A stretch of DNA of 64,000 bases from an uncultured delta proteobacterium (GCA_963843145.1 CAWJJC010000010.1:32001-96000); one strand, 5' to 3'. Shown: positions 8,335 through 63,051, counted from the stretch's first letter. The notes: generated from the sequence alone by a model not told the origin. A program made the numbers and translations.

Positions 8335-10751
8335 TTATCTTGTTAAGTTAAGTTTGTGTTCTAATATGTTGGCAAGGTCTAAAGGACTTATCCGCTGATG
8401 TCGCAGAGGGGGTTGGTCAAACAGGTCGAAAACCTGGCCGTCCACGCCCAAGGAATCAAAAGCCCCGCATTTAATCAGGCCTTTCACCACCCATTGGTTT
8501 AGCCGGCACAGCTCATCCCGCTTACAAAAATCGATCAGAGACTTAAAGGCGTCCCCTTTGTCCCTGGCCTCCAGGATGGATTCGATAGCACCTTCCCCCA
8601 GATTTTTTACCGCTGCCAATCCAAAACGGATTTTGTCTTCCACTAGAGTAAAATCCAGTTGACTCAAGTTGACATCCGGGGGCAGTACCACGATCCCCTT
8701 CTCTTGGCATTCAGCAATACACTTGGCGACTTCTGTGGAAGTTCCCATTTTATTGGCCATGAGGGCGATCATAAAATCCAACGGGTAATGGGCCTTTAAA
8801 TAGGCGGTTTGATAGGTGATCAAGGCATAGGCGGCACTGTGGGACTTATTAAATCCATAGTGTGAGAAGGTTACCATATGACCAAAAATAGCCTCAGCCT
8901 TTTTCTGATCAATTTTTTTCTTCCTGGCCCCTTCCAGAAAACGGGTCCTTTGCCGCGCCATGACCTCCGGGATCCTCTTCACCTATATCCTTTCGCAGGG
9001 TATTGGCCTCTTCCATGGAATAATCGGCCAGGAGACTTGCGATTTGCATGAGCTGCTCCTGATAGACAATAATCCCAAAGGTCTCCTTGAGGATCCCTTT
9101 CAACAGGGGATGAAGATATTCGACCGGCACTTCTCTGCGTTTTCTTTTGATATAATTTTCCACCATGCCACTCTCTAACGGTCCAGTCCGGTACATAGCT
9201 TTGAGGGCAATGAGGTCTTCAAATTTTTCGGGCTTGCTTTTGATCAGCAGGTCTTTCATGCCGGAACTTTCCATCTGAAAGACCCCGGTAGTATCTCCCC
9301 GAGCCAGGAGATTATAGGTGAGGGGATCATCCAGGGGGATCAGCTTTAGATCGATTTTTAGACCGTGGGTCTGTTCAATGGTCTTGAGGAGATATTTGAT
9401 GATGGTCAGATTGTTGAGACTCAGAAGATCGAATTTGATCAACCCCATTTCCTGGACCGAATTCATTCCAAACTGGGTCAGGGCCTCCCCCTTGTGCTGT
9501 TTGTATAAGGGGACGCTATCGGCGATCGGATGGGGGGAAATCACCACTCCGCCAGCAAGGGGGCCATTATACATGGGTAAGCCCTCCAGGGCCTCGGAAA
9601 TTGTCAATAGTTCATGGATAGTCGGATCCGTGTCTTTGAGTTCCTTGAGCCTGGGTTCTTCCCTTAAGGCCTCGAATAAGAAGATATGATGGGAGGGAAT
9701 CAAATCGGCAATCTTATCGACTTTTTCTTGTGGGATATTTAATGCCTGGCCCACAAGCCTAATGACCCATTTTAGGGGCATTTTCTCGAAGGTGATGATC
9801 TTGGCCACATATTCCTGACCGTATTTCTCGGTGATATATTTAATGACTTCATCCCGGCGTTCCAGGCAAAAGTCGACATCGATATCCGGGAGTCCATTGC
9901 TTTCGATGCTGAGAAACCTTTCAAAAAGGAGATTGTAGCCGAGGGGATCAATATCGGTGATGCCGAGGGAATAAGCCACCAGACACCCGGCCACGGAAGC
10001 CCGGCCCGGTCCGACCGGAATCCCCTGGGCCTTGGCATAGTTGACATAATCAGCCACAACTAAAAAATAGCCGGAAAACCCCTTCGAAGCAATAAGGGTG
10101 AGTTCTCTTTCTAGCCGGTCCTGGTACTCTTTAACCCGGGAGGCCGGGAAGGCGGGGTCCAATTGGGTCTTTAAGGCCAACCGTTGTTCTAAACCGCTCT
10201 GGGCCTCTTTTTTGAGACGGCCATCGATAGTCTCTTCCGCAGCCAGGGGATAGCGAGGAATATGGAAATGGCCGAAGGTCAATTCGAGATTACAACGATC
10301 AGCGATATGGAGGGTATTTTCAATGGCCTCCGGGAGATCTGAAAAAAGGGTTATCATATCCTCCGGCGACTTGAAATACTCTTGGTCGGTGAAAAAGCGA
10401 AACCGGTTGGGATCACCTAAAGTCTTCCTGGTCTCGATGCACATCAAGACCTCATGAGACTTGGCCTCTTCCTGAGTCAAATAGTGACAGTCGTTGGTGG
10501 CCACAATGGGGAGACCCAGGTCCCGGTGAATTTCCAGCAGACCCTGATTAACCAGGTCCTGTTCCGGAATATCGTTTTTTTGGAGTTCGAGATAAAACCG
10601 GTTCTGATCGAAAATCTCAGCCATTTCCCGGGAAATATCCAATGCCCGGTCTTTATCGCCTTTGAGCAGGGCAGAAGGAATCTCCCCATAAAGGCAGCCC
10701 GAAAGGGCGATCAAGCCTTCGTGATGTTCCTGCAAAAGCTCCCGGTCGACC
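8335..10751 (-). pseudogene. dnaE: DNA polymerase III alpha-subunit paralog, N-terminus cut off by IS21, frameshift near 8980, lacking C-terminal OB/tau domains
   Basis: RVDRELL...GLIALSGCL, TNDCHY, PDIDVDF, KFDLLSL, GVFQMES, YQEQLMQ, YGFNKSHS; ends soon after GAFDSLG. Confidence 0.85.
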
Positions 10752-10920
10752 TATTATCACCGATTTAAAAACCTACCAAACCCACCGGTAGAGAAACCGG
10801 CCAGGGGATGGTGAGGGCGGTATTCAGCGCCGTGGGCTCAGCCGAAGAGCGAACCGCCGGGTTATCGGGGTCATCCGAGATCAGGAATCTACCCGATTAT
10901 TTATTTTCATAATTTAAGGC

Positions 10921-11661
10921 TCAGGATTTAATTTTTCTTCGATAGCTGGACCCTCCTAAGATAAGGACCTCCGAGTTACAAACGAGACGGTCGGCTATCG
11001 CCGTGGCGGCCGTGGTGGAATCGAAGATATTTCCCCAGTCAGCAAACGGAAGGTTCGTAGTCAGCGCAGTGGACTTGACCTCATGCCTTTGGCTGATGAC
11101 CTGGAAGAACAGGTTCGACCCTTGGGGGCCCAGCGGTAGATACCCGATCTCGTCGATGGCCAGGAGGTCCGGGGTTTGATACTCATGGAGCTTGCGGACC
11201 AAGGAATGATCGGCCTCGGCGGCGGTGAGTTGATTGATCATATCCATGGCCGTGGTGAAACGGCATTTGATGTTGGCATTACAGGCGGCAAAGACCAGGG
11301 CCTTGGCCAGGAAGGTTTTACCGGTGCCGGGATTGCCGATGAAAAGGACATCCCGGCGTTGGGCGATGAAGTCCAGGGAGAAGAGGTTGAGGATCTGGGT
11401 TTTCTGGTCCAGCCGGGATTTATGATGATGGAAGTCGAACTGGTCCAGGGTGGGTTTATCGACCAGGCGGGACTGACGATAACGTGAGGTGATGGCCGTC
11501 TGCCGGCGGGCTTCCAGTTCGTGGTCGGCCAAGCGGTGGAGGGGGTCCACCCCGTTGAGATTTTTCTGAGCGGCCTGGTCCAGGACCAGGTCCAGGTGTT
11601 GGGCCATGGTTTTCAGCCGGAGCCGGATCAGTTTTTCCTTGAGGTCTTCCAGGTCGGGCAT
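10921..11661 (-). CDS. istB: IS21 helper ATPase IstB
   Basis: GNPGTGKT, LLAIDEIGY, LFFQVISQR, TTNLPF..W, AIADRL. Confidence 0.95.
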   Translation of the reverse strand: MPDLEDLKEKLIRLRLKTMAQHLDLVLDQAAQKNLNGVDPLHRLADHELEARRQTAITSRYRQSRLVDKPTLDQFDFHHHKSRLDQKTQILNLFSLDFIAQRRDVLFIGNPGTGKTFLAKALVFAACNANIKCRFTTAMDMINQLTAAEADHSLVRKLHEYQTPDLLAIDEIGYLPLGPQGSNLFFQVISQRHEVKSTALTTNLPFADWGNIFDSTTAATAIADRLVCNSEVLILGGSSYRRKIKS

Positions 11662-11663
11662 GG

Positions 11664-13132
11664 TTACTCCTTGCGCTTCAAGATATAGGCGTCATACTCG
11701 GCCAGGAGGGGCTCCTCCAGACGGATGCGGTTTAAGTCCTCCCTTTTCAGGTGCACCGGGGGATGGATTTTTTTAGGGTGCTTTTCCTGGTGGAGGATAT
11801 TTTGCACATAAGCAGCGCCATAGGCGTTATGGGCGTTGGCCCGCGAAAGTGCCTGGATTAAATCGGCGGTCCCGTATTGATCGTGGAGGGCCAGGAGTTT
11901 AGCCAGATTTTTTTTGATCGGCTGTCCGGTCCGGTTCAGGCCCTCCAGGAAGGCCTGGGCTTCCTCACCGAAGGAGATGAAACGGGAGACCTCCACGGCC
12001 AGCCATTCCTGGGGTCGGCGTTTCCAGGCCGCCTCGCGGTGGGCCGGGAGCTCGATCCGTTGTTTCTTCTCCCAGCAGCGGGTATGGGTGGCCAGGACCT
12101 TTTCCCGGAGATAGACGGTGACGGTGTGGGTATCGGCCTTGACGATGACCGGTTTGCCGACGGCCCAGGGAGGAACCGAGTAGCTGTTGCCGTCGAAGCG
12201 GAAGGCGAAGTCGGCCTGGACCTTGACCGAGAGGGTTTCCCGGCAGTCGGGCAAGAAGTCCGGTAAGGGTTGCAGGGCCTCGGGCTTGAAGCGATCCTTC
12301 GGGGCCGTTCGCCGGTGGTGTTGTGGATGCGGCTATTGGCCTGGGTGTCCAGCCAGTGCCGGAACTGCTGATTGACATCCGTAAGATCGGTAAAGGACCG
12401 CAGGGGCCAGAAGTTGTGGCGGATGTAGTGGATGCCCCCTTTTTCGATCTTGCCTTTTTCCTGGGGCTGATAAGGATGGCAGGCCCGGGGCACGATCCGG
12501 AAGGGTCTGAGAAACTCCAGGAAGGCCTCGTTAAAGCGGATGAGGGACCCCTCCCGTTCGGTGACGGCGGTGCCCATGTTGTCGACTACCAGTTCCGAAC
12601 AGACGCCTCCAAAGAAGAGAAAGGCGTTCAACAGGGCCTGCTGGAGGGCCTCCTGCTTCTGGGAGTGGGTGAACTCCCCGTAAAGCAGCCGGCTATGCGC
12701 TTCAATAATCGCCAAGCAGTAAAGCTTCCGGGTAGTCTTCCCGTAGAGCAGGGAGCCGAAGTGGCCCCAGTCCACTTGAAACTGTTTTCCCGGAGCCGAT
12801 TCGAAGCGGATATAGGCCCGTTTTTCTTTCGGCCGGATCTCGTGCAGGTAATCCCGGAGGATGGAGGTCTTCCCGGTATAGCCCTGGGGGATCAACCGTT
12901 GGAATAAAACCGTACTGCTGACCGTGGGGTCCTTTTCCAGCAACCGCCGGATCTCCTCCCGGAAGGGGTCCAGCTTGCTGGCCCGGACGATCACCGGCTT
13001 GGGCGGGTTGGGCTGATCCAGGTATCTTTTGACGCTGTCCCGGCTGAGCTTCAGGGTCCGGGCGATTTTGCGGATCCCATAGCCTTCATGGAACAACCGA
13101 TGGATCTCGAAGACGGTGCGGCGGTCGATCAT
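11664..13132 (-). CDS. istA: IS21 transposase IstA (frameshift near 12300)
   Basis: N-terminal HTH, RFESAPGKQFQVDWG, DNM, KGKIE; C-terminal FDGNSYSVP lies in ORF 11664..12254. Confidence 0.92.
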
Positions 13133-13440
13133 GCGGGCCTCCTTTCCGGCAAGGACAAGACCTGGAACAGGGGCTCCTGAAAGGCCACCAGGTCCCGGGT
13201 GATCAAGCCATTGAGGGCCCGCCGGTATTGTTCCGGACTCAGTTGCAACCGGGAGCCAATGGTCTCCGGGCGGTAATACGAAAGTCCCTGCTCATCGGCG
13301 GCCAGGACCAGGAAAAAATAGAGCAGCAGTTCCTCCGGACTCAGGTACTTAATCCAACCCCGGAAGCGATGTTCGATAAAGGCGAAGCTGCCGTCGATTT
13401 TTCGTATCCGGCGGGGGTTCAAGAGTTTTTTCTGGATCAT
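13129..13440 (-). CDS. Small HTH-like protein overlapping the istA start
   Basis: RIRKIDGSFAFIEHRF...LLYFFLVLAADEQGLSYY; its stop overlaps the istA ATG (ATGA). Confidence 0.75.
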   Translation of the reverse strand: MIQKKLLNPRRIRKIDGSFAFIEHRFRGWIKYLSPEELLLYFFLVLAADEQGLSYYRPETIGSRLQLSPEQYRRALNGLITRDLVAFQEPLFQVLSLPERRPA

Positions 13441-13489
13441 GGGCGCCTCCCGATGTTTTGGAGGCATCGATTAAAAGAACTCGCATCAT

Positions 13490-13953
13490 TTAAAGTCTAT
13501 CGAGTCCTCTTTTGCAATATGGACCCCGTGGTGCCAACTGGCTGGAATAATGAAGATTTTTTGGCGCTAACGCATCCATCTTTGCAAGGGCGGGAGCAAT
13601 AAAATAAGTTCCTGAGCTTATAAAAGAAAGAGGCTTGAACGCGTCCATCTTTGCAAGATTCGTTAACCGGCGTTTTCGGTCCGGACTTTTCTGTTTCGGC
13701 CGTTGTTGCGTTTGCACATAGGACGGGGTGTCGGTGACCGATAGTTCTTCCAATAGTCGGGATGGTGTTTCAGCCAGTTCTTTTGGGCATCCCGATGGTC
13801 GGCCTGGTAGTCTGGATCTTGGCGAACTTTTCCCGTTGCCAGAGGGTTTTCCGGGCTCTGCTGGCATTCCGGTCGGTTACAATACTGCTGGTTCTTTATC
13901 CGGGGATTCGGAAGAAAAAAAGATTGGCAATGCCGACATTGATTCCGGTCCAT
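13490..13953 (-). CDS. IS21-associated hypothetical protein with CxxC...CxxxxC motif (frameshifted)
   Basis: CRHCQSFFLPNPRIKNQQYCNRPECQ; WLKHHPDYWKNYR; LAKMDA occurs twice. Confidence 0.6.
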
Positions 13954-14137
13954 GGCTTCCCTCCCGGGGAAACCATAAATCGGACATCGATTCTCTGAAA
14001 CGGAAGAAAATTAAAAAAATGGAGGATGGTCGGAGAAGAAAAAGGAAGAAAATAGATCCCTGGCCGGGTTCTACTCCGGTGGCCCTGGACTACTTCTTAA
14101 CCGAAGTAAATGGTAGGCTTACTGACTGGTGATGATA

Positions 14138-14821
14138 CCCTTAAGGATTTTGGCTTGAATCCAAAAAACCTGGGAGCGGAAATCGGCCTGACCATGGTCT
14201 TGCATACGAACAGCCGAAAACTGGACTTCCATCCGCATGTTCATGCGGTGATACCCGGCGAAGGTGTCGATAAAAAAAGGCGCCAGTGGAAAAAGAAAAA
14301 AAGCCAGTATCTGTTTAACGTTAAGGCCGATGGCTAAAGTTTTTCGGGCCAGGTTCCTGGCCGCTTTGAATGAGGCCAGGCTTTCCATCCCCGGAAGCGT
14401 TTCCGGAGAATGGGTCGTTGACTGCTCTCATGTGGGAAAGGGGATCAGCGCCCTGAAATATTTATCCCGATATCTATACCGCGGGGTTATCAGTGAAAAA
14501 AATATCATCTCAAATCAGAATGGCCAAATCACCTTTCGATATATTCAAAGTAAAACCGGTAAAACTCAATACCGCACCCTTAAAGGAGAAGATTCTTTGT
14601 TTCTCATCCTGCAGCATGTCCTGCCCAAGGGATTTCGGCGGGTCAGGGACTATGGGTTTCTCCATAGCAACGCCAAGAAACTGCTGATGGTTGTCCAATT
14701 GATTTTGCGGGTTTTTCTTGAAGTTGTCAAAGAGCGGCCAAGACCTGTTTTTAAGTGTTCCTGCTGTTAAACCCCACTGATAATTCTTGGTTTTCGTTAT
14801 CCTGCATTGGAATCAGGGTAA
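14138..14821 (+). pseudogene. IS91-family (HUH) transposase, 5'-truncated by IS21, frameshifted
   Basis: VLHTNSRKLDFHPHVH (HUH), YLSRYLYR (catalytic Tyr), QHVLPKGFRRVRDYGFL. Confidence 0.9.
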
Positions 14822-15014
14822 CTGACCTTTGTGGCTAAGGCTGGCATAACCTTTCATCATGAGGTTTCAAAACTATACGAAATAATTCAGTTTTTTATTA
14901 AGCATGTTAAATGCTAAGGTACCTCTACGTCCTGAAAAAGGCGCATCGCGTTAAAGCTTCTCTTAAAACTCCTTCTCAAAAAAGATATTTTCTTTATATA
15001 AAGTAATCGGGCTC

Positions 15015-15079
15015 GTTCAACCAAACGGCATAATATTGTGGTTCGCTTCGCTCTCACAATCTATCCTTATTCGTTGGGC
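15015..15079. other. attC-like site at the IS91 3' end
   Basis: GTTCAAC (RYYYAAC)...ATTGTG/CACAAT stem...GTTGGGC (GTTRRRY), 65 bp; spacer lengths and unpaired base favour + orientation. Confidence 0.6.
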
Positions 15080-15282
15080 AATGATCTAAGAGAGTTTAGT
15101 CACCTATGGAGCAATAATGTCCGGGTTAGGGTTTTGCATAAACGGTTAAGAAGTTTTGGTCATCGTAGTTGTTTGGTTTTGGTGAAAAATAATTTCCCTC
15201 CAGGTCGAAGATGTTACTTGACAAATCAGGTATTTAGCGGGCCGATTTTCCGTAACCATCTGATATTACGGAGGATCTATTC

Positions 15283-15392
15283 ATGCCCTACACGTGGATA
15301 CCTGGGAGACCAAAGAAAAAACACAAGGCCCACGACAACCTTATGACACCTGTCAACCACCTATTGCCCGATATCACTCCTTTGCTCTCGGG
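15283..15392 (+). pseudogene. Probable N-terminal fragment of an IS4-like transposase interrupting the cassette
   Basis: MPYTWIPGRPKKKHK...LLPDITPLLSG with GGAGG RBS and upstream TTGACA; recalled resemblance only. Confidence 0.3.
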
Positions 15393-15858
15393 ATGCAACT
15401 GTCCTAGTAGGCCCAACCTTCCAAATAGATCATTTATGACCTTTCGATCTAAAACATATGTCTTCAACTCGAATGCTGCAACGAATTTATAATTGTCGTC
15501 CCCTGAGACTGATATGACTGCGATATCCGTCCTTTGATGAATGCCGCCAAAAAACTTTTCTATATCTATATCGTGTGTGGGAATGAACTTCTGAGAACGG
15601 AAGCGGCGTGTATCTTTTGTATTCTCTTCATCATCGAAAGTTATCCCTGTCCGGCGTTCTATGCTTTTCAAAATGTATCGAAAGAAAATATATTCCGATA
15701 AGCCGGTAAAACCGGAGGAAATACCCATTCGTTTCTTTAAGCTCTTTCCACCAATCCCAATACATTTGAATAAGTGCTTTTTCCGCAGCATCGTCCTCAA
15801 GGCATTTTTCGATATGCTGATCTAAAAGATCAAAAACCTCGATCTCGATGCCCTTCAT
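15393..15858 (-). pseudogene. Integron cassette gene, possible PD-(D/E)xK nuclease, frameshifted and 3'-disrupted
   Basis: Starts just after the attC at 15875; ORFs 15631..15858 and 15288..15800 join; TDIAVISV...FELKTY. Confidence 0.5.
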
Positions 15859-15874
15859 AAAACCCCTTCGCAGT

Positions 15875-15936
15875 TATCAACGCCATGGCTGACTTGCCGC
15901 CGCTTTTTGGCGGTCAAGTCCAGCCGCTTGTTAGGC
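15875..15936 (-). other. Integron attC site
   Basis: Minus strand GCCTAAC-AAGCG-GCTGGACT...AGTCAGC-CATGGC-GTTGATA; canonical R''/L''/L'/R' with two extrahelical bases; upstream gene's TAA lies in R''. Confidence 0.9.
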
Positions 15937-16792
15937 GGCGTTCTCCGCGATCAAACGTTTCGCCCAGTCCACCGCTTCTGGGTAATCGTGCGTATCAAGA
16001 ACGAACTCCTGTCCACGCGCCACACTCTGAAGATACACATAATTCTGATCGAGTTGCCACTGCAGGGGTTGGAGTGATAGCTTAGCCCTGATCCCCTTTC
16101 CGAAGGGTGAAACCACTTTGGTAGCCTCCAAAAACTGCGATTCGACGCTGGAGCTGTCAAAACCAACTGGTCAGCAACGGACGGAAGGTCCCCGCAGCAT
16201 AAGCTGTGTCGGTTCCAGCTGCGACATAGATTGTGTTGGTAGACCCGTAGTTTGCGGCAACGTGAGGATGCATGCTCGCCCAATCGGGGACACTGTATGA
16301 ATCTTTCCCCAACCGCCACATATCACCGACCTCAAGCCAGCCAAAGAAAATGTGGAGATCTGGAGCAGCGGGCCTGAAGCGAAACCGACCACTATGTTGT
16401 TCGACCTCCCGGAACCAGCCGAAGAACAGAAAGATCTCGCCTGATCCAACACCGTGCTTGTCGAGATGCCGCTGGGCTGCATCCGCCTGCCCGAAAAGCG
16501 GTCGCCATCCTGGTTTGCGCGGAAGCGAGTCCATTCTGAGATCCGGATCAAGATGAACAGGATCACTCGCCTTCACGGGGCGGCTACGCCGGACAGTCAG
16601 GTCTTCCACGATCGCACCGATCCGTTGATCCCCGCCAATGTCCGAAAAGTTAACGCGTGCGTGGTCTGGTGGCGGTGGCGAAACAAACCCATGTGGTATC
16701 GGCAAGGACACAAAAGAGCCGTCCTCGAAGATAGGGCTTGCGCACCCACCGAACGAGGAGTCAAATCCCTTTCGACTCAGGATTAGCTTCAT
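15931..16792 (-). CDS. Cassette gene: nucleotide modification-associated domain 3 (Nmad3)-like protein (frameshifted)
   Basis: MKLILSRKGFDSSFGGCASPI...SLPIP, HLDPDL, LFGQ, FLFFGWFR, HPH; C-terminus (LSYH, RGQEFVL) lies in adjacent frames. Confidence 0.8.
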
Positions 16793-16803
16793 TGATAGGA
16801 TCC

Positions 16804-16868
16804 GTGTAACGCCGGGTATCAGCGGGAGCCCGCACTATGAGTGATCCACTGCATGCCCGGTGTTAGGT
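16804..16868 (-). other. Integron attC site
   Basis: Minus strand ACCTAAC-ACCGGG-CATGCAGT...GCTGATA-CCCGGC-GTTACAC, 65-bp imperfect palindrome. Confidence 0.8.
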
Positions 16869-16975
16869 GTCGCATTGTTTCTTTCGTTGTAAAGCATATA
16901 ACGCTTCAAAGTACCCGGACGATTTTGCATAATTGAAGATTCAAGGCCATACCGCTCCGATATCCTTTTCAACAA

Positions 16976-17143
16976 TTACTCAAATTGAGTTCGGAAGATA
17001 TAATGTTGACTTTCGAGGTAAAAGCCAATATCGTGGGTCTCCCTGTTTAACCCAGTTGTCGCTAAGGCTTCCTCCTCTGGTGCCCACTGAGATTTACAGA
17101 TGACATTTTCATATTGAGCCTCCGCTATAGGATCTGTAAACAT
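16976..17143 (-). CDS. Small hypothetical protein (55 aa)
   Basis: GGAGG RBS ahead of ATG; MFTDPIAEAQYENVICK...; no recognisable motif. Confidence 0.35.
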   Translation of the reverse strand: MFTDPIAEAQYENVICKSQWAPEEEALATTGLNRETHDIGFYLESQHYIFRTQFE

Positions 17144-17278
17144 ATTTATTCCTCCATAACTCCCACAGTTGAAGGTTGCCAACAAGAAAACTTGATTATT
17201 TTACCTTATTCTTCCTATATTTTAATTGCCAAAAAGTCAATAAATTTCAAATCCCTTTCATTCCACTATATCTCCAGC

Positions 17279-18208
17279 CTATTTTTTGTGCCTTTTTAAT
17301 GCCGTTTCTAAATCCTTCTGCAAGGTCGATTTCAACTCCTTTGGTGAAACCACTTCCACATTAGGCAACCAACTATAAATCCAGTGAGTTATCCCCTCCA
17401 GACCGTTTACCCTGAATCGGAGTTCCAGTCGTCCATCTTTAAGATCTCGTTCCTTTTGGCTCCCGTGCCACTTTTTCCTTTGGATATAAGGTTTGCATCC
17501 CTTGTCAAATCTTAAAACCACTTCGACTGGTTCTCCGTCCACTACCGTTCCAAAAGCCCCCGAGAGTTCTTCCTCCGGGGCAATATCCCTGGGGACGAAA
17601 TGTTCCTCCAAAAGCTTTAGAGAGATAATCCGGTCCAAGGCAAAAGTCCTGACTTCCTCTCTGAGATGGCAATATCCTCGAAAGTACCAAAATTCCTCAT
17701 CGAAGAAAAGATAGTAGGGATCAACTTTTCTGGTATTTTTTTGATCGGAGGAAAGTGTCCGATAAATCATTTTGAGTTTCTGAAAATTCATGATGGCCTT
17801 ATGAATAAGACTGATGTGGCCGGTCACCTCCTTCGGAAGCTCTTTTCCTGAAAGGACAATGTGCCGGGGAATATCCGTTTTTTTGACCGTAAGCTTCTCT
17901 TCAATCCGCTTTAAACTATCCTCCCAGCCACTCCCCATCCTGCCCATCATTTTCCTGGAAATACCCAGGGCCAGGGTCTCTTCCATCGAAAGATTCGGTT
18001 TTTTTAAACCGTAGCCCTCCGTAAAGCCATAACCCCCTTTCTCTTTATCCAAGACAATCGGAAATCCGGCCACCTGAAGGGTGTTAAGATAACGGAAGAC
18101 GGTCCTCTCACTAACTCCAAGGTCTTCTTTCAAAGACTCAACGGTAACCTTTTCCTGGCTGTCGAGTTTATTCAGGATCATCATCAGAGAATCGAATTTA
18201 TAGGACAT
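17279..18208 (-). CDS. HTH-WYL-WCX transcriptional regulator (YafY/PafC-like)
   Basis: LGVSERTVFRYL HTH; RKVDPYYL...WYFRGYCHLREEVRTFALDRI; WCX-type C-terminus VEVVSPKEL. Confidence 0.93.
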   Translation of the reverse strand: MSYKFDSLMMILNKLDSQEKVTVESLKEDLGVSERTVFRYLNTLQVAGFPIVLDKEKGGYGFTEGYGLKKPNLSMEETLALGISRKMMGRMGSGWEDSLKRIEEKLTVKKTDIPRHIVLSGKELPKEVTGHISLIHKAIMNFQKLKMIYRTLSSDQKNTRKVDPYYLFFDEEFWYFRGYCHLREEVRTFALDRIISLKLLEEHFVPRDIAPEEELSGAFGTVVDGEPVEVVLRFDKGCKPYIQRKKWHGSQKERDLKDGRLELRFRVNGLEGITHWIYSWLPNVEVVSPKELKSTLQKDLETALKRHKK

Positions 18209-18319
18209 CTTTCCACCTCTTATTAATGATCTCAAGAAAGAATCAACATCGAATCACTGAATTCCGGGTCAAGCCCGGAATGACTAAAAATGGTTTATCA
18301 ACTTTTTGCTATTCCGTAA

Positions 18320-19798
18320 TTATTGGCACATCTCTTTTAATTTCTCTAAAATTTTGACCATAGCCAGGGTATCGAGGCGGCAATAATCCAGCATGGCTTG
18401 ACGCAATTTGGCTGCCTCTTCCATATCCCGAATTTCCATTAAGTTCTGATAGGCATTCATCGCCATCCCCCCATCCTGGATTTCCAGGTTGGAATAAGTC
18501 ATATCGGGAAGCAGGCAGGGGAGGACGTTTTTCAGGGAATAAGACCCTTTCATTTTCCAGTGATAGACATCTTTTTTTCTGAAGGGGATGGCCAGATCCT
18601 GAAGATTTTGGGTAATTCCTTCGATCCTGTCTTTGTAATTCGGGAACCAGGTAGCCAGGTTCTGGAGACAGCCTTTTTCAAAGCTGGCGTTATAGGCGAT
18701 AACACAGGCCCCCGGAGGGATTTGATCGCAAAGGTTTTGCAGGAGTTCTTCCCTGAAATCGGATCTGGGATCTGCCAAGAATTCGAGGTGTCCCAAAACC
18801 CCGTTCTCCTTTTCCTGGTAATGGAGCGAATATTGAAAGGGGATCCGCTGATAAGGGCGAGTCCCGTTAAAAGGAGGAATCGGAGGATTAATCGTCTCGA
18901 AATCCAAAAAATAGAGGGGATACCAGAGGGTCTTGAGGAAGTCCTTGACCCCATCGGAATTAAAAACCTCCTCCTGGTTGAGGAAGGAGTCTAATTGAAG
19001 CCTTTGACCCTGGGACAATAATTCCCCGGGGACCTCTTTTAGATCAACATACCCCTGATAGTAGAGCTTAAAACGATTCGTTCCTTGCCCCCCAAGGTCA
19101 AAAATAGAATTCTCGGGAAGATGCTCCCGGCAGTGGCCGATGAAATCACAGGCATAGGGATCATTGCATTGTTTCCCGATGGCAATCTCGGGTTCCTTTC
19201 CTGAAAGCATCCGCCGGAGCTTGTTTACCTCCTCCTTTACCCATTCTTGTTTTTTCAGTACACTTTCTGTAACCTCATCGACAATAAATAATTTGTCCGG
19301 TTTTATAGCCCCGTTTCGGACATATTGATTATTGATATAAACCAGGAAGGTTTTCTCAACGGGAAGCCCGGAGCCTTTGGCCACATAAAATTGGAGGGCC
19401 ACGTCATTCAGATGGACTTCTTCTATTTCCGTAACCCCTTTTACCTCGTAAAGTTCCCAACCTTCCTCTCCCAGATGAAGGAGGTCGTTTTTAACAAAGA
19501 TGTCGTCAAAGCTGAAGGTAGCTTCATAGATAGTGTCAATCCCCTTGCTCAGGGCGTTTTGAGTCTTCTGAAGCTGGTCATTATGGGAAAGACCTTCATA
19601 GGGAATTTCTATTCCTCCAGGGAAGAGCTCCTGGGCCAACATTCCCACTTCTGTCCCGGTCTGGAAAAGGTTCTCCTGGTCTTGAGAAATTTCATCCCTC
19701 CATTCCGGGTGAAATTTGTGGAGGTATAAGGACTTAGGACACTGGATGCCTCTTATAAAGAGGGACTTGCTTAAATAGGCCGTTCCTTCTTTCGGCAT
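18320..19798 (-). CDS. DUF2779-domain protein (Cas4-like PD-(D/E)xK nuclease plus RNase H/DEDD-like domain)
   Basis: LSKS...QCPKSLYL; DLL...ELYEVK; C..PY.C.F...C; YFLDFET, RPYQRIPFQYSLH, YNASFEK, GSYSLK, YCRLDTLAM. Confidence 0.88.
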   Translation of the reverse strand: MPKEGTAYLSKSLFIRGIQCPKSLYLHKFHPEWRDEISQDQENLFQTGTEVGMLAQELFPGGIEIPYEGLSHNDQLQKTQNALSKGIDTIYEATFSFDDIFVKNDLLHLGEEGWELYEVKGVTEIEEVHLNDVALQFYVAKGSGLPVEKTFLVYINNQYVRNGAIKPDKLFIVDEVTESVLKKQEWVKEEVNKLRRMLSGKEPEIAIGKQCNDPYACDFIGHCREHLPENSIFDLGGQGTNRFKLYYQGYVDLKEVPGELLSQGQRLQLDSFLNQEEVFNSDGVKDFLKTLWYPLYFLDFETINPPIPPFNGTRPYQRIPFQYSLHYQEKENGVLGHLEFLADPRSDFREELLQNLCDQIPPGACVIAYNASFEKGCLQNLATWFPNYKDRIEGITQNLQDLAIPFRKKDVYHWKMKGSYSLKNVLPCLLPDMTYSNLEIQDGGMAMNAYQNLMEIRDMEEAAKLRQAMLDYCRLDTLAMVKILEKLKEMCQ

Positions 19799-19868
19799 GT
19801 CTGATCTCCTGCTTAATTGAGTTAGGTTTTTCCTTATTGTTGCTGATTTCTTATTTTGACCAAATATT

Positions 19869-19898
19869 ATTATACCGTACTGCCAGGGCCATGTCAGT
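19869..19898 (-). promoter_or_regulatory. Sigma-70 promoter with overlapping palindromic operator upstream of DUF2779-WYL
   Basis: Minus strand CTGACA-N17-TATAAT; inverted repeat ACTGCCA-N6-TGTCAGT (19879-19898) covers the -35 box. Confidence 0.65.
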
Positions 19899-20030
19899 TC
19901 ACTATGTTAATTATAATTTATAAATCTTTACATATAAAATCCATGTAACGCGTAGAAGCTTAATAATCCTATGTGGTTATCAATAATAATAGCCAAATTT
20001 CATAACAAAACCAATTATCTGAGGGGAAAT

Positions 20031-20485
20031 ATGGACTTCAAACAACTTCTCGAAAAGATTTACCAAAAAAATAGCTCAGTAAACGTTTATTCCAAAAAGG
20101 GGCTCCATTGGTCGGAGTATTTTGGGTTGACCCCGCTATAAAGGAAATCGAGCTGACTTTTGCCGAGCCGGCAGAATCAATAGAATTGGAACCGGGGAGC
20201 GAGTTTATTACCGGTCCTCATGGTCATTGTGCCATTTGGGCACAATATAAAAGGAATGGCTTACTTCCTCAAAAATGGAAGGATCAGGAATACGAATATG
20301 TTCCCAGGGGGAGGGTTCTCTACGAGAGAAAGAAAAAAAGGTTTAAAGTTTTTTCCAGCCAGGAATTGGCCAAAAGTCGATGGTTTCGGGAGGCAATTAT
20401 TAAAGAGTTCAATCTCCAATCCGAGAAAACAGGTTTTTTCGGCGATGAGCACTATGAAGATCCTTTAAAAAGGAAAAGAAAATAG
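20031..20485 (+). CDS. Hypothetical protein (5' frameshift likely)
   Basis: GAGGGG RBS and ATG at 20031; VGVFW...HGHC..W...EYEYVPRGRV...DEHY. Confidence 0.6.
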
Positions 20486-20526
20486 GTCTTTTCAAAATTA
20501 GCGAATGAAGGGCAACGCTTTTTTCA

Positions 20527-20610
20527 ATGAATAAGCGTCTTATCAAGACCAGTAAATTCTTGAGTCTGGTCCTTCGTCATCAACCCGAAACCATAGGCTT
20601 ATCATTAGAT
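20527..20610 (+). pseudogene. kptA: RNA 2'-phosphotransferase (KptA/Tpt1) N-terminal fragment
   Basis: SKFLSLVLRHQPETIGLSLD is the KptA N-terminus; similarity stops after about 28 aa. Confidence 0.75.
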
Positions 20611-20887
20611 CAAATAGATACTATTGCCATATATTTTCATCGATGGATGTATCTCAAACGAAATAAAAACCAGGCATCTCTCTTGAGAATTGAGGTCTAC
20701 TATTCTTCCATCAAAACTCCTTGATTAAAGGTTGCCAGAAAGAAATGCCTCTATGGCTGCGGATTTAGAAGCTTACAAGGAAGCACTCTATTTGGATAAA
20801 CTACATTCATCCGAATTGCCCAAAGTTTAGCCACTCATCTTGACTAAGGAGCCATCAACCAGTCCCTGATAATCTATCCAGTTCTCT

Positions 20888-21060
20888 TCAGCGTTTCTTT
20901 CCGATCGCAAACGCTTTTCCAATAAATTCCCCGATACCATGATACTGTTGTATTTCCGGGCTGAAGACCAGGGGACGAATCTTCTCGATATCGGGTTTTC
21001 CATCATCCTTCAGCATACTTTCATCAATTTTGACATCTAAAATCTCACCCACGAATTGGG
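20888..21060 (-). pseudogene. Flavin reductase-like protein C-terminal fragment
   Basis: QFVGEILDVKIDESMLKDDGKPDIEKIRPLVF...GKAFAIGKKR*. Confidence 0.6.
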
Positions 21061-59746: not shown

Positions 59747-60640
59747 TTACCTCAGAATAAGCGGTAGATAAATATTCTTTCTAATTGGGGCAAAGGCCAA
59801 ATCGTAGCTGATGTTATTCTGGGCTATCAGTGTCGCGATCCCTGTGCTTTTATCCAACACATAAAAACCACCAGTGCTGCCGAAAGCAGCATAGAGAGTA
59901 CCATCGCTAGGATCAATCGCCAACCCGCCAAAACCACCTATTGTTACCCCGGGGTTTCCTATGGAGGTATAGGAGCCAGTGGCAGGACTCACTGTGCCCA
60001 GAGAGTTGCCAATAGCATCAAGCGCATAGAATTTTTGACCATCAAAAGCCAGCCCATTCAGGTCGCGGTTTTCACCTGGGACTGGTCCCAGTACCGTGGC
60101 GATACCTGTGGTGGGGTTGATCGTGAACATCGCAGCGTTACCAGCATTCCCTTGATTTACTCCGAACAATTGCCCTGACGCATCAAATGCTAGTCCGCCT
60201 TCGAAAACGAAGAATCCTAATGGCCCAACTGCAGTGGCAACCCCATTGGTTGTATTGATCGTGTACAACCTTGCGCCCGAACCGATACTAGTGCCGTATA
60301 GAGTCCCGTTACCGTGGAAGGCTAAAGCTCCTATTGCGATCTCAACTGGTCCGTGGGGACCAATCAGGGCGGCGCTTCCGGTGGTTTTGTCGATCATAAA
60401 TAAATTCAGACCATCTGTAGCATACAAACCTCCTGAGACCGGAGTTTGTAACACTGCGGCAGGAGCAGATGTGAAATCTTTATGAAGTCCATCTTCGCTA
60501 TTGGTGGAATAGCCGAGCACACCGGTCAAAGGCGATATAACTCGTGGCACCACTTTCATTGCCGGAGCAGCCGCTGCCCAAGTTTCCAAAAAACCCAACC
60601 CGATGGTCAACACGAATGCGATAATAAGTCGAAATTTCAT
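59747..60640 (-). CDS. Secreted beta-propeller-like protein with C-terminal IYLPLILR tail
   Basis: Signal peptide; repeated LAF..G.LY / TI...TG.AT. Confidence 0.8.
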   Translation of the reverse strand: MKFRLIIAFVLTIGLGFLETWAAAAPAMKVVPRVISPLTGVLGYSTNSEDGLHKDFTSAPAAVLQTPVSGGLYATDGLNLFMIDKTTGSAALIGPHGPVEIAIGALAFHGNGTLYGTSIGSGARLYTINTTNGVATAVGPLGFFVFEGGLAFDASGQLFGVNQGNAGNAAMFTINPTTGIATVLGPVPGENRDLNGLAFDGQKFYALDAIGNSLGTVSPATGSYTSIGNPGVTIGGFGGLAIDPSDGTLYAAFGSTGGFYVLDKSTGIATLIAQNNISYDLAFAPIRKNIYLPLILR

Positions 60641-61112
60641 TCTATTTCTCCTTTAGGTTGTTTGCAAATGTTTTATGCCTAATATGTCATTAAAAAGTAC
60701 TGTGATCTCCATTACAAAGATATGATCTTAAGTTTACCGTAAGCGTTTGATCCCGCCTCACCTCATCAAACCACAACCCCCACCTCTTGGTTGAGAAATG
60801 GGGTTTCCTAAATTCCTCCATTTTCTTGCCCTCTTTTAGGGTTGAGTGGCGTTGCTGGAAAACGGGTTATCTTACTGTTTTGGGTCTTAAATGAATCCCA
60901 TTATATACAATTTTTGAAATAGTAAATAGGAGGTTCTTCATCGGGCAGGTACCCTTAATTTGGGCAGGTCCTTCAACAATTTCCGTTTGAAATCTTCTCA
61001 AAAGGGCAATCCGTCAAAAACAATTCAGGAAGCTATACGTACTAAAATCTGATTTTCTTATTGAAGTTAATGGGTTAGGTGTTGTTTAAAATCTCATAGT
61101 TTTGTTTTTTCG

Positions 61113-62006
61113 TCAAGGATTATTTGGGTGGCCAGCCGTTTGTTGCCTGATCACCTCCATGGCTTTGAAGTAGTCTCTCTGCACCTTAAGGTTTGATATC
61201 CGGCAGTACCGTTGTGTGGTTTTCACATGGCTATGACCCAAGAGATCTTGAATGGTGGAGAGATCGGCATCGGCATTGAGCAGCTGGGTGGCCATGGTAT
61301 GCCGAAGATGATGACAGGACACCTTGAGCTTGGCCTGGCGGGCATAAGTTTCCATGCGCCGCTGAATGCCGCGGATGGAGATGGGCTGCCCCTGGCAAGG
61401 CTTCTTTTCCGCCAGGAAGATCTTTCTGGATCTGGATGGAGGCCTCACCCTCAAATAGGCGGCCAGGGCCTGAAGGGCATCATGGCTCATATAGACGACC
61501 CGATCTTTTCCGCCCTTACCGTCTTCAACCAGGATAGTCCTGCGTTTGACGTCTATGACCCCGATCGTTAGCTGGGCGACTTCTTCCACCCGTAACCCGC
61601 AACGGAGCATGAGCATGAACATGGCCCGGTCACGGACGCCCTTGATGGCCTTGAAGAAGGTCTCCACCTGATCATCTCTCAGGTGCCGGGGAAGGGGCTG
61701 GGACATCTTCTGGAGATGAGTCTTCTTGATGGGATTGGTGATAATCACCCCTTCCTCATCCCGCAGGTAATGGTAGAACTGGCGAATACCGTTCAAGTGG
61801 CAGTTGACCGTCTTGGGCGCCAGCCTCTTCCTCATGAGATGCTCGATGTAGCGTGACACGGTTGCGTGGGTCACGGCCTCCACCGGCACATCCAGCCAGA
61901 GGATAAAGTGTTTAATGAGGTTCAGATAGTTCTTCACGGCATGGGGCGAACAGTTCCGCCGCTTTAAAAATCTCTGCCAGTTCAGGATCGCATCGGTCAT
62001 CGCCAT
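61113..62006 (-). CDS. Tyrosine recombinase/integrase (second)
   Basis: GLRVEE, GKGGK, HHLRH, LGH, TQRY. Confidence 0.93.
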   Translation of the reverse strand: MAMTDAILNWQRFLKRRNCSPHAVKNYLNLIKHFILWLDVPVEAVTHATVSRYIEHLMRKRLAPKTVNCHLNGIRQFYHYLRDEEGVIITNPIKKTHLQKMSQPLPRHLRDDQVETFFKAIKGVRDRAMFMLMLRCGLRVEEVAQLTIGVIDVKRRTILVEDGKGGKDRVVYMSHDALQALAAYLRVRPPSRSRKIFLAEKKPCQGQPISIRGIQRRMETYARQAKLKVSCHHLRHTMATQLLNADADLSTIQDLLGHSHVKTTQRYCRISNLKVQRDYFKAMEVIRQQTAGHPNNP

Positions 62007-63051
62007 TACTGTCCCTCCTCTCTATTTTCGACATGGCTCTAAAATACTCTTCCTCGCGGGTCTTATCGGTCAACTGGGCATAACGCCGGGTCTCCTCGAT
62101 ACTCCGGTGACCCAGCAAAACCTGGAGACACTCCAGACGCATACCGGCGTTGAGAAACTCCGTGGCAAAGGTGTGGCGAAGGGTATGCAGGGAATATCCC
62201 TTGTCCGCCAATCCCGCCTTCGCCAGATATCGTATAAAGATGGTCCGGGCGGTGCTGTAGGACATCGTCTCTGTCCGGGTATAGATCAGGTACTCCTCAC
62301 CGGGATTCCTCTTCTTCAACCACCTCCGCAGAGCCAGGGCCGCATCGTCACTGAGATAGACCACCCTCCCCAGGCGGTTCTTCTCCCCTTCGTAAATCTC
62401 TATCCTCCGCTCCTTGAGATGGACGTCGGCCATCTTGGTATTAAGCAGTTCACCGATCCGCAGACCCGTCCTCAACAAGACCAGGATCATGGCCCGGTCA
62501 CGAATATCTTCAATGACCGAAAGCAGCTTCCGCAGATCGTCAGGATCCATGGCCCGCGGCAGCCGCTCCGGTAATTGCAACCGTATCCTTCTGCTGAATA
62601 GTTCCGCAGAAACGATCCCTTCTTCTAACAGGTAACGGAGAAAGGCTTGCACACTCACCAGCCTGGTCCTGATCGTTGTAATCTTAATCCCCCGGTCCTG
62701 CTCCTGCTCAATGAACGCCTCCACATCCCTTCGGGTAATGGCTTCCAGGGATGCCCTGCCGCTCTCCCGTATCAGGCCAAGAAAAAGAATGATCGCCCCA
62801 AAACGACTGTATAAGGTCCTCGGTCTGCGGTTGCGAAGAGTCAGGTGACGAAGATAGGCTTCCACCTGATCCTTCCCCGGAAGGTCCATCCGGACCAGCC
62901 GTTTCAAAATCTTGCCAAGCGCTTCTAAACAGCCTTCAGGATGTATTTTAAATCGTAATCGCGTTTGATAATAACGGGGAGCGTTATCGGCGGGAATCTT
63001 AAAATCAGAAGATATACTCGTCTGCTGTAGATCACTATGTCCGTTCGTCAT
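61912..63051 (-). CDS. Tyrosine recombinase/integrase (first)
   Basis: GLRIGE, GEKNR, HTLRH, LGH, TRRY. Confidence 0.93.
   Translation of the reverse strand: MTNGHSDLQQTSISSDFKIPADNAPRYYQTRLRFKIHPEGCLEALGKILKRLVRMDLPGKDQVEAYLRHLTLRNRRPRTLYSRFGAIILFLGLIRESGRASLEAITRRDVEAFIEQEQDRGIKITTIRTRLVSVQAFLRYLLEEGIVSAELFSRRIRLQLPERLPRAMDPDDLRKLLSVIEDIRDRAMILVLLRTGLRIGELLNTKMADVHLKERRIEIYEGEKNRLGRVVYLSDDAALALRRWLKKRNPGEEYLIYTRTETMSYSTARTIFIRYLAKAGLADKGYSLHTLRHTFATEFLNAGMRLECLQVLLGHRSIEETRRYAQLTDKTREEEYFRAMSKIERRDSNGDDRCDPELAEIFKAAELFAPCREELSEPH

Follow-up and report, generated by a model that had tools for sequence, protein, structure and literature searches.

A HUH transposase gene followed by a palindrome that resembles an integron attC site raises the question of whether the two belong to one mobile element or record the fusion of two different mobility systems that act on single-stranded DNA. 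Such an arrangement is present in the genome of an uncultured delta proteobacterium, within a stretch of 64,000 nucleotides (GCA_963843145.1, CAWJJC010000010.1:32001-96000; hereafter the window, with positions counted from its first letter). A first-pass annotation, made from the sequence alone, had placed the 3' end of an IS91-family element at GGGCTC/GTTCAAC, had regarded GTTCAAC as the first box of an attC-like hairpin fused to that end, and had proposed that the element either targets attC R boxes or travels as an integron cassette. The letters themselves were confirmed: CGGGCTC runs up to 15014, GTTCAAC occupies 15015-15021, with 15015 lying 194 bp past the transposase stop, and the palindrome extends over 65 bp through GTTGGGC at 15073-15079.

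The assignment to the IS91 family also held, given the matches to the Y2_Tnp profile and the HPHVH motif. Relatives were collected at 79 loci (transposase identity over the query, 56-91%), and comparison with them gave the following features at the right end of the element.

14137-15075, plus strand: right-hand 939 bp of an IS91-family element of about 2.3 kb
14137-14821, plus strand: transposase pseudogene, C-terminal ~60% of the protein (PF04986 and translations)
14110-14337 and 14330-14767, plus strand: open reading frames of the transposase fragments
14230-14244, plus strand: HUH motif HPHVH, seen in the translation
15015-15021, plus strand: GTTCAAC box, internal to the element; reverse complement of the lost left-end GTTGAAC
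15027-15066, plus strand: oriIS subterminal hairpin (5' arm 15027-15041, decayed; loop; 3' arm 15055-15066)
15067-15075, plus strand: terminal TTATTC then GTT, the true element/flank junction (near-invariant end of the nhmmer match)

The window copy is the stump of a larger element. It aligned by blastn with locus L012 (2810-3742) at 91.4% identity over 939 bp, and homology to L012, L011, L016 and L021 sets in at window position 14137; for L013 it begins at 14249, this locus being cut by a contig end. The breakpoint at 14137 falls inside the catalytic domain of the transposase, so that the copy has lost its left end, its tyrosine-recombinase gene and some 170 transposase codons, together with the N-terminal Zn-binding domain (PF14319) that the intact relatives have. 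Both remaining fragments match Y2_Tnp (PF04986; 47.5 and 94.6 bits, cut-off 20.9) and cover profile positions 1-47 and 88-179. The frame is shifted by an additional G at 14329, which none of the five aligned relatives has, and TAA stands at 14768-14770 where 15 relatives have a sense codon (CAA, AAA, AAG or CAG) in the alignment; read through this nonsense codon, the frame reaches the natural stop at 14819-14821. Of the hallmarks of the IS91 family, the HUH-Y2 transposase is recognizable in the fragments, and a complete transposase with its Zn-binding domain is lacking. Truncation, frameshift and nonsense codon together mark the window copy as dead, the remnant of an IS91-family member that no longer works. 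This copy holds the sole Y2_Tnp domain and the sole hairpin of this kind in the 5.35-Mb genome of 32 contigs. From identical integrase coordinates in G005 and G030, we infer that the genome of L012 belongs to the same family as that of the window. The DNA to the left of 14137 is unrelated and unique and includes a frameshifted IS21 element; a repeat at 10700-14136 that could explain the truncation was ruled out, this stretch being unique in the genome. A 96-aa open reading frame with CxxC ... CxxxxC motifs (13663-13953, minus strand) lies between the end of the IS21 element and the breakpoint, and no family match was obtained for it.

The palindrome was found to accompany the transposase. It begins with a GTYCAAC box, which a 5-nt spacer separates from a 12-bp stem that has a single bulged base; a 6-nt spacer (TTATTC) and then GTT follow. 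In 16 aligned relatives, GGGCTYGTYCAAC and the whole hairpin are kept along with the transposase, and similarity between the flanks ends only after TTATTC-GTT, about 58 bp past GGGCTC, every locus differing beyond that point. An HMM of the hairpin stretch yielded 91 nhmmer matches, the window's included, at the same distance from the gene wherever the contig reaches. The 12-bp stem is 97.5% paired in 23 diverse family members and carries compensatory changes at four of its 12 pairs, with a covariation score equalled by none of 500 shuffles. Collectively, the conservation, the compensatory changes in the stem and the late divergence of the flanks lead to the conclusion that the palindrome is part of the element and the GGGCTC/GTTC junction is internal. 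By the same comparison, the true junction is between 15072/15073 and 15075/15076, and not at 15014/15015. The cut can be placed only within or beside GTT, since the left end of the element also begins with GTT; the left junction of L045, A-TTGAAC, hints at a G/TT crossover (a single case). As expected of an IS91-family oriIS, the palindrome abuts a GTTN target (TTATTC/GTTG, 15067-15076). The fusion point of the first-pass annotation thus has to be moved by some 58 bp, and the hairpin is the internal oriIS structure, an outcome that the annotation itself had named within its refuting conditions. It had also suggested aligning the homologues downstream, where a constant arm was to indicate a cassette; a constant arm was indeed found, yet it does not imply a cassette moved by IntI.

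The box is conserved as GTYCAAC among the relatives and covaries with the left end, GTTCAAC occurring with GTTGAAC and GTCCAAC with GTTGGAC, with exceptions in L038, L052, L056, L084 and the Endozoicomonas-type copies and with a signal inflated by relatedness. This covariation suggests that the box would pair with the left end at termination or in a circle. In the window, the palindrome folds as DNA no better than shuffles (z -1.1 on the plus strand, -1.7 on the minus strand), and the same stretch in four relatives gave z values of -2.0 to -3.6 in six folds (two relatives on both strands); the poor fold of the window palindrome is due to an inserted C and a G-to-T change in its 5' arm relative to the family consensus. 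Traits of an attC site are present at 15015-15079, namely RYYYAAC and GTTRRRY boxes, an imperfect stem, 5/6-nt spacers and an extra base on the 5' arm. The palindrome was also correctly described as facing opposite to two further sites (A and B, below): its plus-strand 5' arm holds the 5-nt spacer and the extra base, and the two single-base bulges of site A are on the minus-strand 5' arm, as in a control array. As a cassette attC the palindrome fails, its sequence being tied to an IS91 transposase and its orientation being opposite to that of sites A and B, and on these grounds it is classed as an attC look-alike and not as a member of the integron attC sites.

Complete relatives are 2.29-2.33 kb long, and copies within a genome are 97-100% identical up to sharp ends; one genome has four 100%-identical copies at four different places, and similar sets were found in two others. 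The gene order is tyrosine recombinase, then Y2-HUH transposase. The transposase of L043 matches NF033538 (transpos_IS91) with 383 bits and has its Zn-binding domain. At the left end, GTTGAAC or GTTGGAC precedes a GCCGC...GCGGC palindrome, and the flanks show no repeat beyond the shared GTT; the terIS end has been lost from the window. The recombinase matches PF00589 and PF13495; among NCBIfam models the integron integrase fits it best, with 90 bits, well short of the 265-bit cut-off.

In these relatives the recombinase gene is split at a conserved run of eight or nine A residues (e.g., L064:2215-2235, and also in L012, L021, L043 and L062). Downstream of the run, 21 of 23 scorable copies encode the catalytic C-terminus (HxLRH ... 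Y) in the -1 frame, and the other two, from one genome, have seven A residues and are in frame; ten of the 33 copies were unscorable by motifs, among them L069, which is in frame by eye. The A8/A9 run has the look of a site for transcriptional slippage or for programmed -1 frameshifting. Part of the oriIS end is duplicated in tandem at L020:770-812, L023:1421-1461, L064:3732-3768, L069:1321-1441 and in L087 after position 982, and in L069 a 13-nt unit that begins with GTTAGAA occurs at least four times between two element copies. Such duplications may be traces of initiation or termination gone wrong.

We next consider the other side of the junction. Two further attC-like sites were recovered by script at 15875-15936 and 16804-16868, and the region reads as follows.

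15073-15079, minus strand: GCCCAAC, putative R'' box of a severed third attC; fits RYYYAAC
15080-15874, minus strand: cassette-like unit with overlapping open reading frames 15858-15631 and 15800-15288; the ATG at 15858 is 17 nt from site A
15875-15936, minus strand: attC site A (top strand is the minus strand), GCCTAAC ... GTTGATA; fold z -3.6 and -3.8
15937-16803, minus strand: cassette with an Nmad3-domain open reading frame, 16792-16157 (PF18754, 189 bits); ATG 12 nt from site B
16804-16868, minus strand: attC-like site B, ACCTAAC ... GTTACAC; fold z -2.4 (plus), -1.35 (minus)

No Pfam or NCBIfam match was obtained for the open reading frames 15858-15631 and 15800-15288. Site A has R boxes, extrahelical bases on the top-strand 5' arm, cassette spacing and a conserved sequence; site B has these in part, the attC tests used here being home-made. 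Homologues of site A occur in G030, G020 and G027, with compensatory changes in the apical stem, and all three genomes have an integron integrase over the cut-off. Site B is weaker, with a multibranch fold prediction and one homologue, an 85% match over 54 nt in G028 with the surrounding DNA unmatched, and it is missed by the covariance model R1, which was built from four A-type sites away from any element. Given how narrow R1 is, and that site B escapes it, a lack of R1 matches does not show that sites are absent. When 15073-16900 was compared with 60 relatives, sites A and B were matched and the cassette contents were not; an uninterrupted allele or homologous cassettes were sought in the same 60 relatives and none was found. 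Like integron attC and CALIN sites, A and B have R''/R' boxes, bulges on one arm, short units with an open reading frame and homologues in integrase-bearing relatives; the differences are that their own genome has neither integrase nor attI and that the palindrome beside them is only a look-alike. A search for an integron integrase in this 97.9%-complete genome gave a best TIGR02249 match of 86 bits against a cut-off of 265, and the pair of intI and attI that makes a complete integron is absent. Since its own genome has no integron integrase, the cassette cluster is integrase-less (CALIN type) at best.

Strong R1 matches in the 5.35-Mb genome numbered two, site A and C8:75907-75969. The latter, outside the window, is an attC-type site of the A family (E 1.4e-9), and a 142-aa open reading frame 2.2 kb from it matches the N-terminal part of the integron-integrase model (C8:78182-78481, 55 bits). 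Within the window, 17279-18235 (318 aa) was considered as an integron integrase and rejected, being a WYL/HTH regulator. A loose anchored-fold attC scan of the whole window was unspecific (128 hits, mostly in G+C-rich coding DNA). A strict genome-wide scan gave 91 scattered hits, mostly from a palindromic repeat family, and missed sites A and B, and for that reason no attC total was derived from it. A strict regular expression combined with RNA folding returned one unrelated site only, and an Rfam search returned nothing relevant.

The target of the element was also examined throughout the family. Among 72 unique right flanks, the positions after GTT are strongly biased: position 4 is A in 50 of 72, position 5 is G or T in 66, position 6 is G in 42, and position 7 is C or T in 57. 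Exact GTTRRRY is present in 23 of these flanks against 6% expected, and GTTRRRY with at most one mismatch in 58 against 31% expected. On the left, 29 of the 38 listed flanks end in TT by our own count. When pre-insertion sites were rebuilt, with pairing imposed on the AAC and GTT boxes and with controls drawn from the same loci, 19 of 37 folded at -12 kcal/mol or below, compared with 32 of 280 control GTT sites (Mann-Whitney p 1e-5); the remaining 18 are not attC-like by this home-made test. Read on the strand opposite to the element, the rebuilt targets have the form xxxxAAC/AAG..., then a stem whose 5' arm carries single-base bulges, and then GTTRRRY. This bulge pattern is also that of the control array in L098, where 55-nt sites lie next to a partial integrase. 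In attC architecture, the extra bases stand on the R''-L'' arm; the L098 control array is the one set on which this rule was checked here.

Individual loci and whole genomes showed the same association. In L043, a genuine integron integrase (430 bits) lies 600 bp from the element, which interrupts the attC belonging to the first cassette, and in L098 copies stand at GCCTAAC/ within the array of 55-nt attC sites. Integron integrases over the cut-off were found in 11 of 14 distinct element-bearing genomes and in none of 14 control genomes. On 75 element-bearing loci, with the element on the plus strand, R1 gave nine matches at E<=0.01, all nine on the minus strand. Those at L056, L058 and L017 (E<=0.01), and a weaker one at L029 (E 0.038), overlap or abut the left end of the element, whose own heptamer serves there as the R'' box of the attC. 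By sequence, then, the insertion point in the attC targets of the relatives is shown to be just after the AAC of R'' on the top strand of the array, with the element always opposite to the cassettes. The preference is not absolute, since copies were also found at the end of another element (L063, L067 and L075), in short tandem repeats (L069) and in apparently coding DNA (L072/L073).

In the window, too, the element probably split an attC, a third one, with GTTGGGC at 15073-15079 as the complement of that site's R'' box: the geometry is that of L043, L098 and the R1 matches, the array is on the minus strand with the element on the plus strand, and GCCCAAC is a proper RYYYAAC. GGGC follows GTT in five of the 72 unique flanks of the family. 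The box lies ~800 bp from site A; its distance from the stop at 15288, which ends the last cassette open reading frame on the minus strand, is 208 nt, a long gap that counts against a third attC. No hairpin can be folded at the window junction because the left junction and the rest of the attC are gone, and a later deletion or rearrangement at 14137 would have taken the left 1.35 kb of the element together with that remainder. The targeting of R boxes proposed in the first-pass annotation therefore survives as a link of the family to such boxes, and the box concerned in the window is probably GTTGGGC at 15073-15079 and not GTTCAAC.

We consider it likely that the locus is a dead IS91-family stump, with its own oriIS palindrome, which was docked at R'' of a third attC by HUH joining. 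For such docking, the HUH transposase would nick single-stranded DNA at the foot of the oriIS hairpin, and the element would be joined to a target strand presenting the same picture of hairpin, short spacer and GTTRRRY, a picture that the folded bottom strand of an attC would fit. The left-end heptamer GTTGAAC may then act as the replacement R'' of the invaded attC. HUH chemistry is preferred because insertions occur beside the ends of other copies, because the ends are duplicated, and because the position is R'', opposite to the cassettes.

Other explanations of the junction were weighed against the same data. It is scarcely credible that the element ends at GGGCTC (15014) and was fused by targeting or capture to an independent attC at 15015-15079: in many genomes the same hairpin and box stand behind the transposase and the flanks begin to differ only past TTATTC-GTT, up to which point the identical copies of a single genome also share the hairpin, and the stem covaries in the family, although the palindrome has the RYYYAAC/GTTRRRY boxes and 5/6-nt spacers of an attC and GTTC at 15015 fits the IS91 target given in the available part of PMC13181058. 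Travel of the whole 2.3-kb unit as an integron cassette, moved by the IntI of the host with the hairpin and the GTT-GAAC circle junction as its attC, is the second proposal of the first-pass annotation and is very improbable. The joined ends would make a complete attC-like site with covarying complementary boxes (GTTCAAC ... GTT-GAAC), the elements reside in integrase-bearing genomes and arrays, and the left junction of L045 fits a G/TT crossover in its one case. Cassette movement, however, does not account for copies that are opposite to the array (nine of nine covariance-model matches, and L043) and placed at R'' instead of the R' crossover point, nor for four identical copies dispersed at non-array sites of one genome; the end duplications in L020, L023, L064, L069 and L087 look like rolling-circle slips, and the element encodes its own IS91 transposase (383 bits).

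An ordinary IS91-type insertion at a plain GTTN, with GTTGGGC belonging to no attC and the nearby attC-like sites being coincidental, is unlikely in our judgement, but several observations would suit it. No attC remainder survives at the window junction, 18 of 37 targets of the relatives are not attC-like, and the region from 8 to 21 kb is littered with mobile and broken DNA, including a frameshifted IS21 element, a dnaE fragment and low G+C. Coincidence is made less plausible by the rarity of A-type sites (two strong R1 matches in 5.35 Mb, with the stump ~800 bp from one of them), by the cassette spacing and the orientation of the stump, which is the standard one of the family, and by the window flank, which is an exact GTTRRRY.

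Beyond docking by HUH joining, a wider interpretation may be put forward tentatively, and we regard it as possible but doubtful: the two-gene IS91 group might form a third class of attC-specific integron parasites, in which mimicry, slippage, docking by the recombinase and R'' replacement all hold jointly. The joined ends would then be an attC mimic with covarying boxes, and a full-length IntI-like recombinase would be made only after a -1 shift on the A8/A9 run. Recombinase and HUH transposase would act on folded single strands to dock the element at R'', and since the heptamer would replace the lost R'', the invaded cassette with the element inside it would stay IntI-mobile. If this were true, the HUH and tyrosine-recombinase single-strand systems would be coupled, as the first-pass annotation had guessed.

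Compared with known systems, the relatives share with the IS91 family (IS91, IS801, IS1294 and IS1294b) a HUH-Y2 transposase, distinct ends and an apparent lack of target duplication, as these are described in the available part of PMC13181058. In that same part, the oriIS ends of the family are described as having imperfect palindromes at a subterminal position and as lying directly against a target tetranucleotide (GTTC, for example), and the cleavage of terIS in IS801 and IS1294 is placed at GTTC (PMC13181058). Here, too, the oriIS palindrome is at GTTN, and the left end GTTG stands beside a palindrome of its own, like GTTC at terIS. The relatives differ in having an upstream tyrosine-recombinase gene, in an internal box that complements the left end, and in a target that is longer (TT/GTT-A-K-G-Y) and often an attC hairpin. 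ISShvi3-type IS91 members with an upstream integrase-like open reading frame have the same two-gene layout, as do similar ISfinder entries, the comparison being one of descriptions. In the available text of a preprint (10.1101/542381), tyrosine recombinases 'found in IS91' fall into an integron-like subgroup without the extra helices of IntI. ISShvi3 has been seen adjacent to attC, and no IS was found interrupting attC sites, according to the available part of PMC9229058; the target rule, the orientation rule and the hairpin are absent from the accessible part of the published description of ISShvi3-type members. No description of the target rule of this IS91 lineage was found in the main texts searched.

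The chemistry proposed for the docking has a counterpart in another family. IS608, of the IS200/IS605 family, uses a HUH-Y1 transposase, subterminal hairpins and a guide sequence complementing the cleavage site, and moves by peel-and-paste. It has in common with the present elements single-strand HUH chemistry at the foot of a hairpin and an internal complement, comparable to that of the GTYCAAC box to the left end; it differs in its Y1 dimer, in peel-and-paste instead of rolling-circle movement, and in having no recombinase gene. Other elements resemble the present ones in their choice of target. IS1111-attC elements have a DEDD transposase and group IIC-attC introns a reverse transcriptase and a ribozyme, and their position in attC differs from that of the present element. 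The IS1111-attC group (IS110 family) and the group IIC-attC introns are the known attC-specific mobile elements, and site- and orientation-specific attC insertion in cassette arrays, which is mentioned in PMC9229058, is shared with them.

For the family as a whole, the data suggest an IS91 lineage that seeks out integron attC sites, which it enters at a single fixed position with a constant orientation, and that is predicted to leave a usable attC behind after insertion. For the window itself, the result corrects an annotation trap, in that the end of an IS91-group element can be miscalled as an attC; the copy found here is inert. If the homing were confirmed, the lineage would join IS1111-attC and the group IIC-attC introns as a source of cassette promoters, a disruptor and a transposase carrier, and it would offer a tractable system for the reading of a folded attC strand by a HUH nuclease.

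Several features of the surrounding DNA were also recorded. From 14000 to 21000 the G+C content is 40-45%, compared with ~55% around it; this interval holds the stump, the two cassettes, the WYL/HTH regulator and a DUF2779 protein (18320-19798), and it is probably one acquired island. The IS21-family element (10800-13650, minus strand) has an intact istB (10921-11661, 234 bits) and a frameshifted istA (11664-13132, 245 bits); repeated CATCTTTGCAAG motifs lie near 13490-13660, and the element is unique in the genome. A dnaE-type fragment of DNA polymerase III alpha (8335-10735, minus strand) abuts the IS21 element; some 125 residues are missing at its N-terminus, and it is spread over at least two frames. 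Finally, adjacent tyrosine-recombinase open reading frames at 59747-63051 (minus strand), which resemble a recombinase-trio element, recur in the same arrangement on contigs C13 and C28, with partial matches to TIGR02249.
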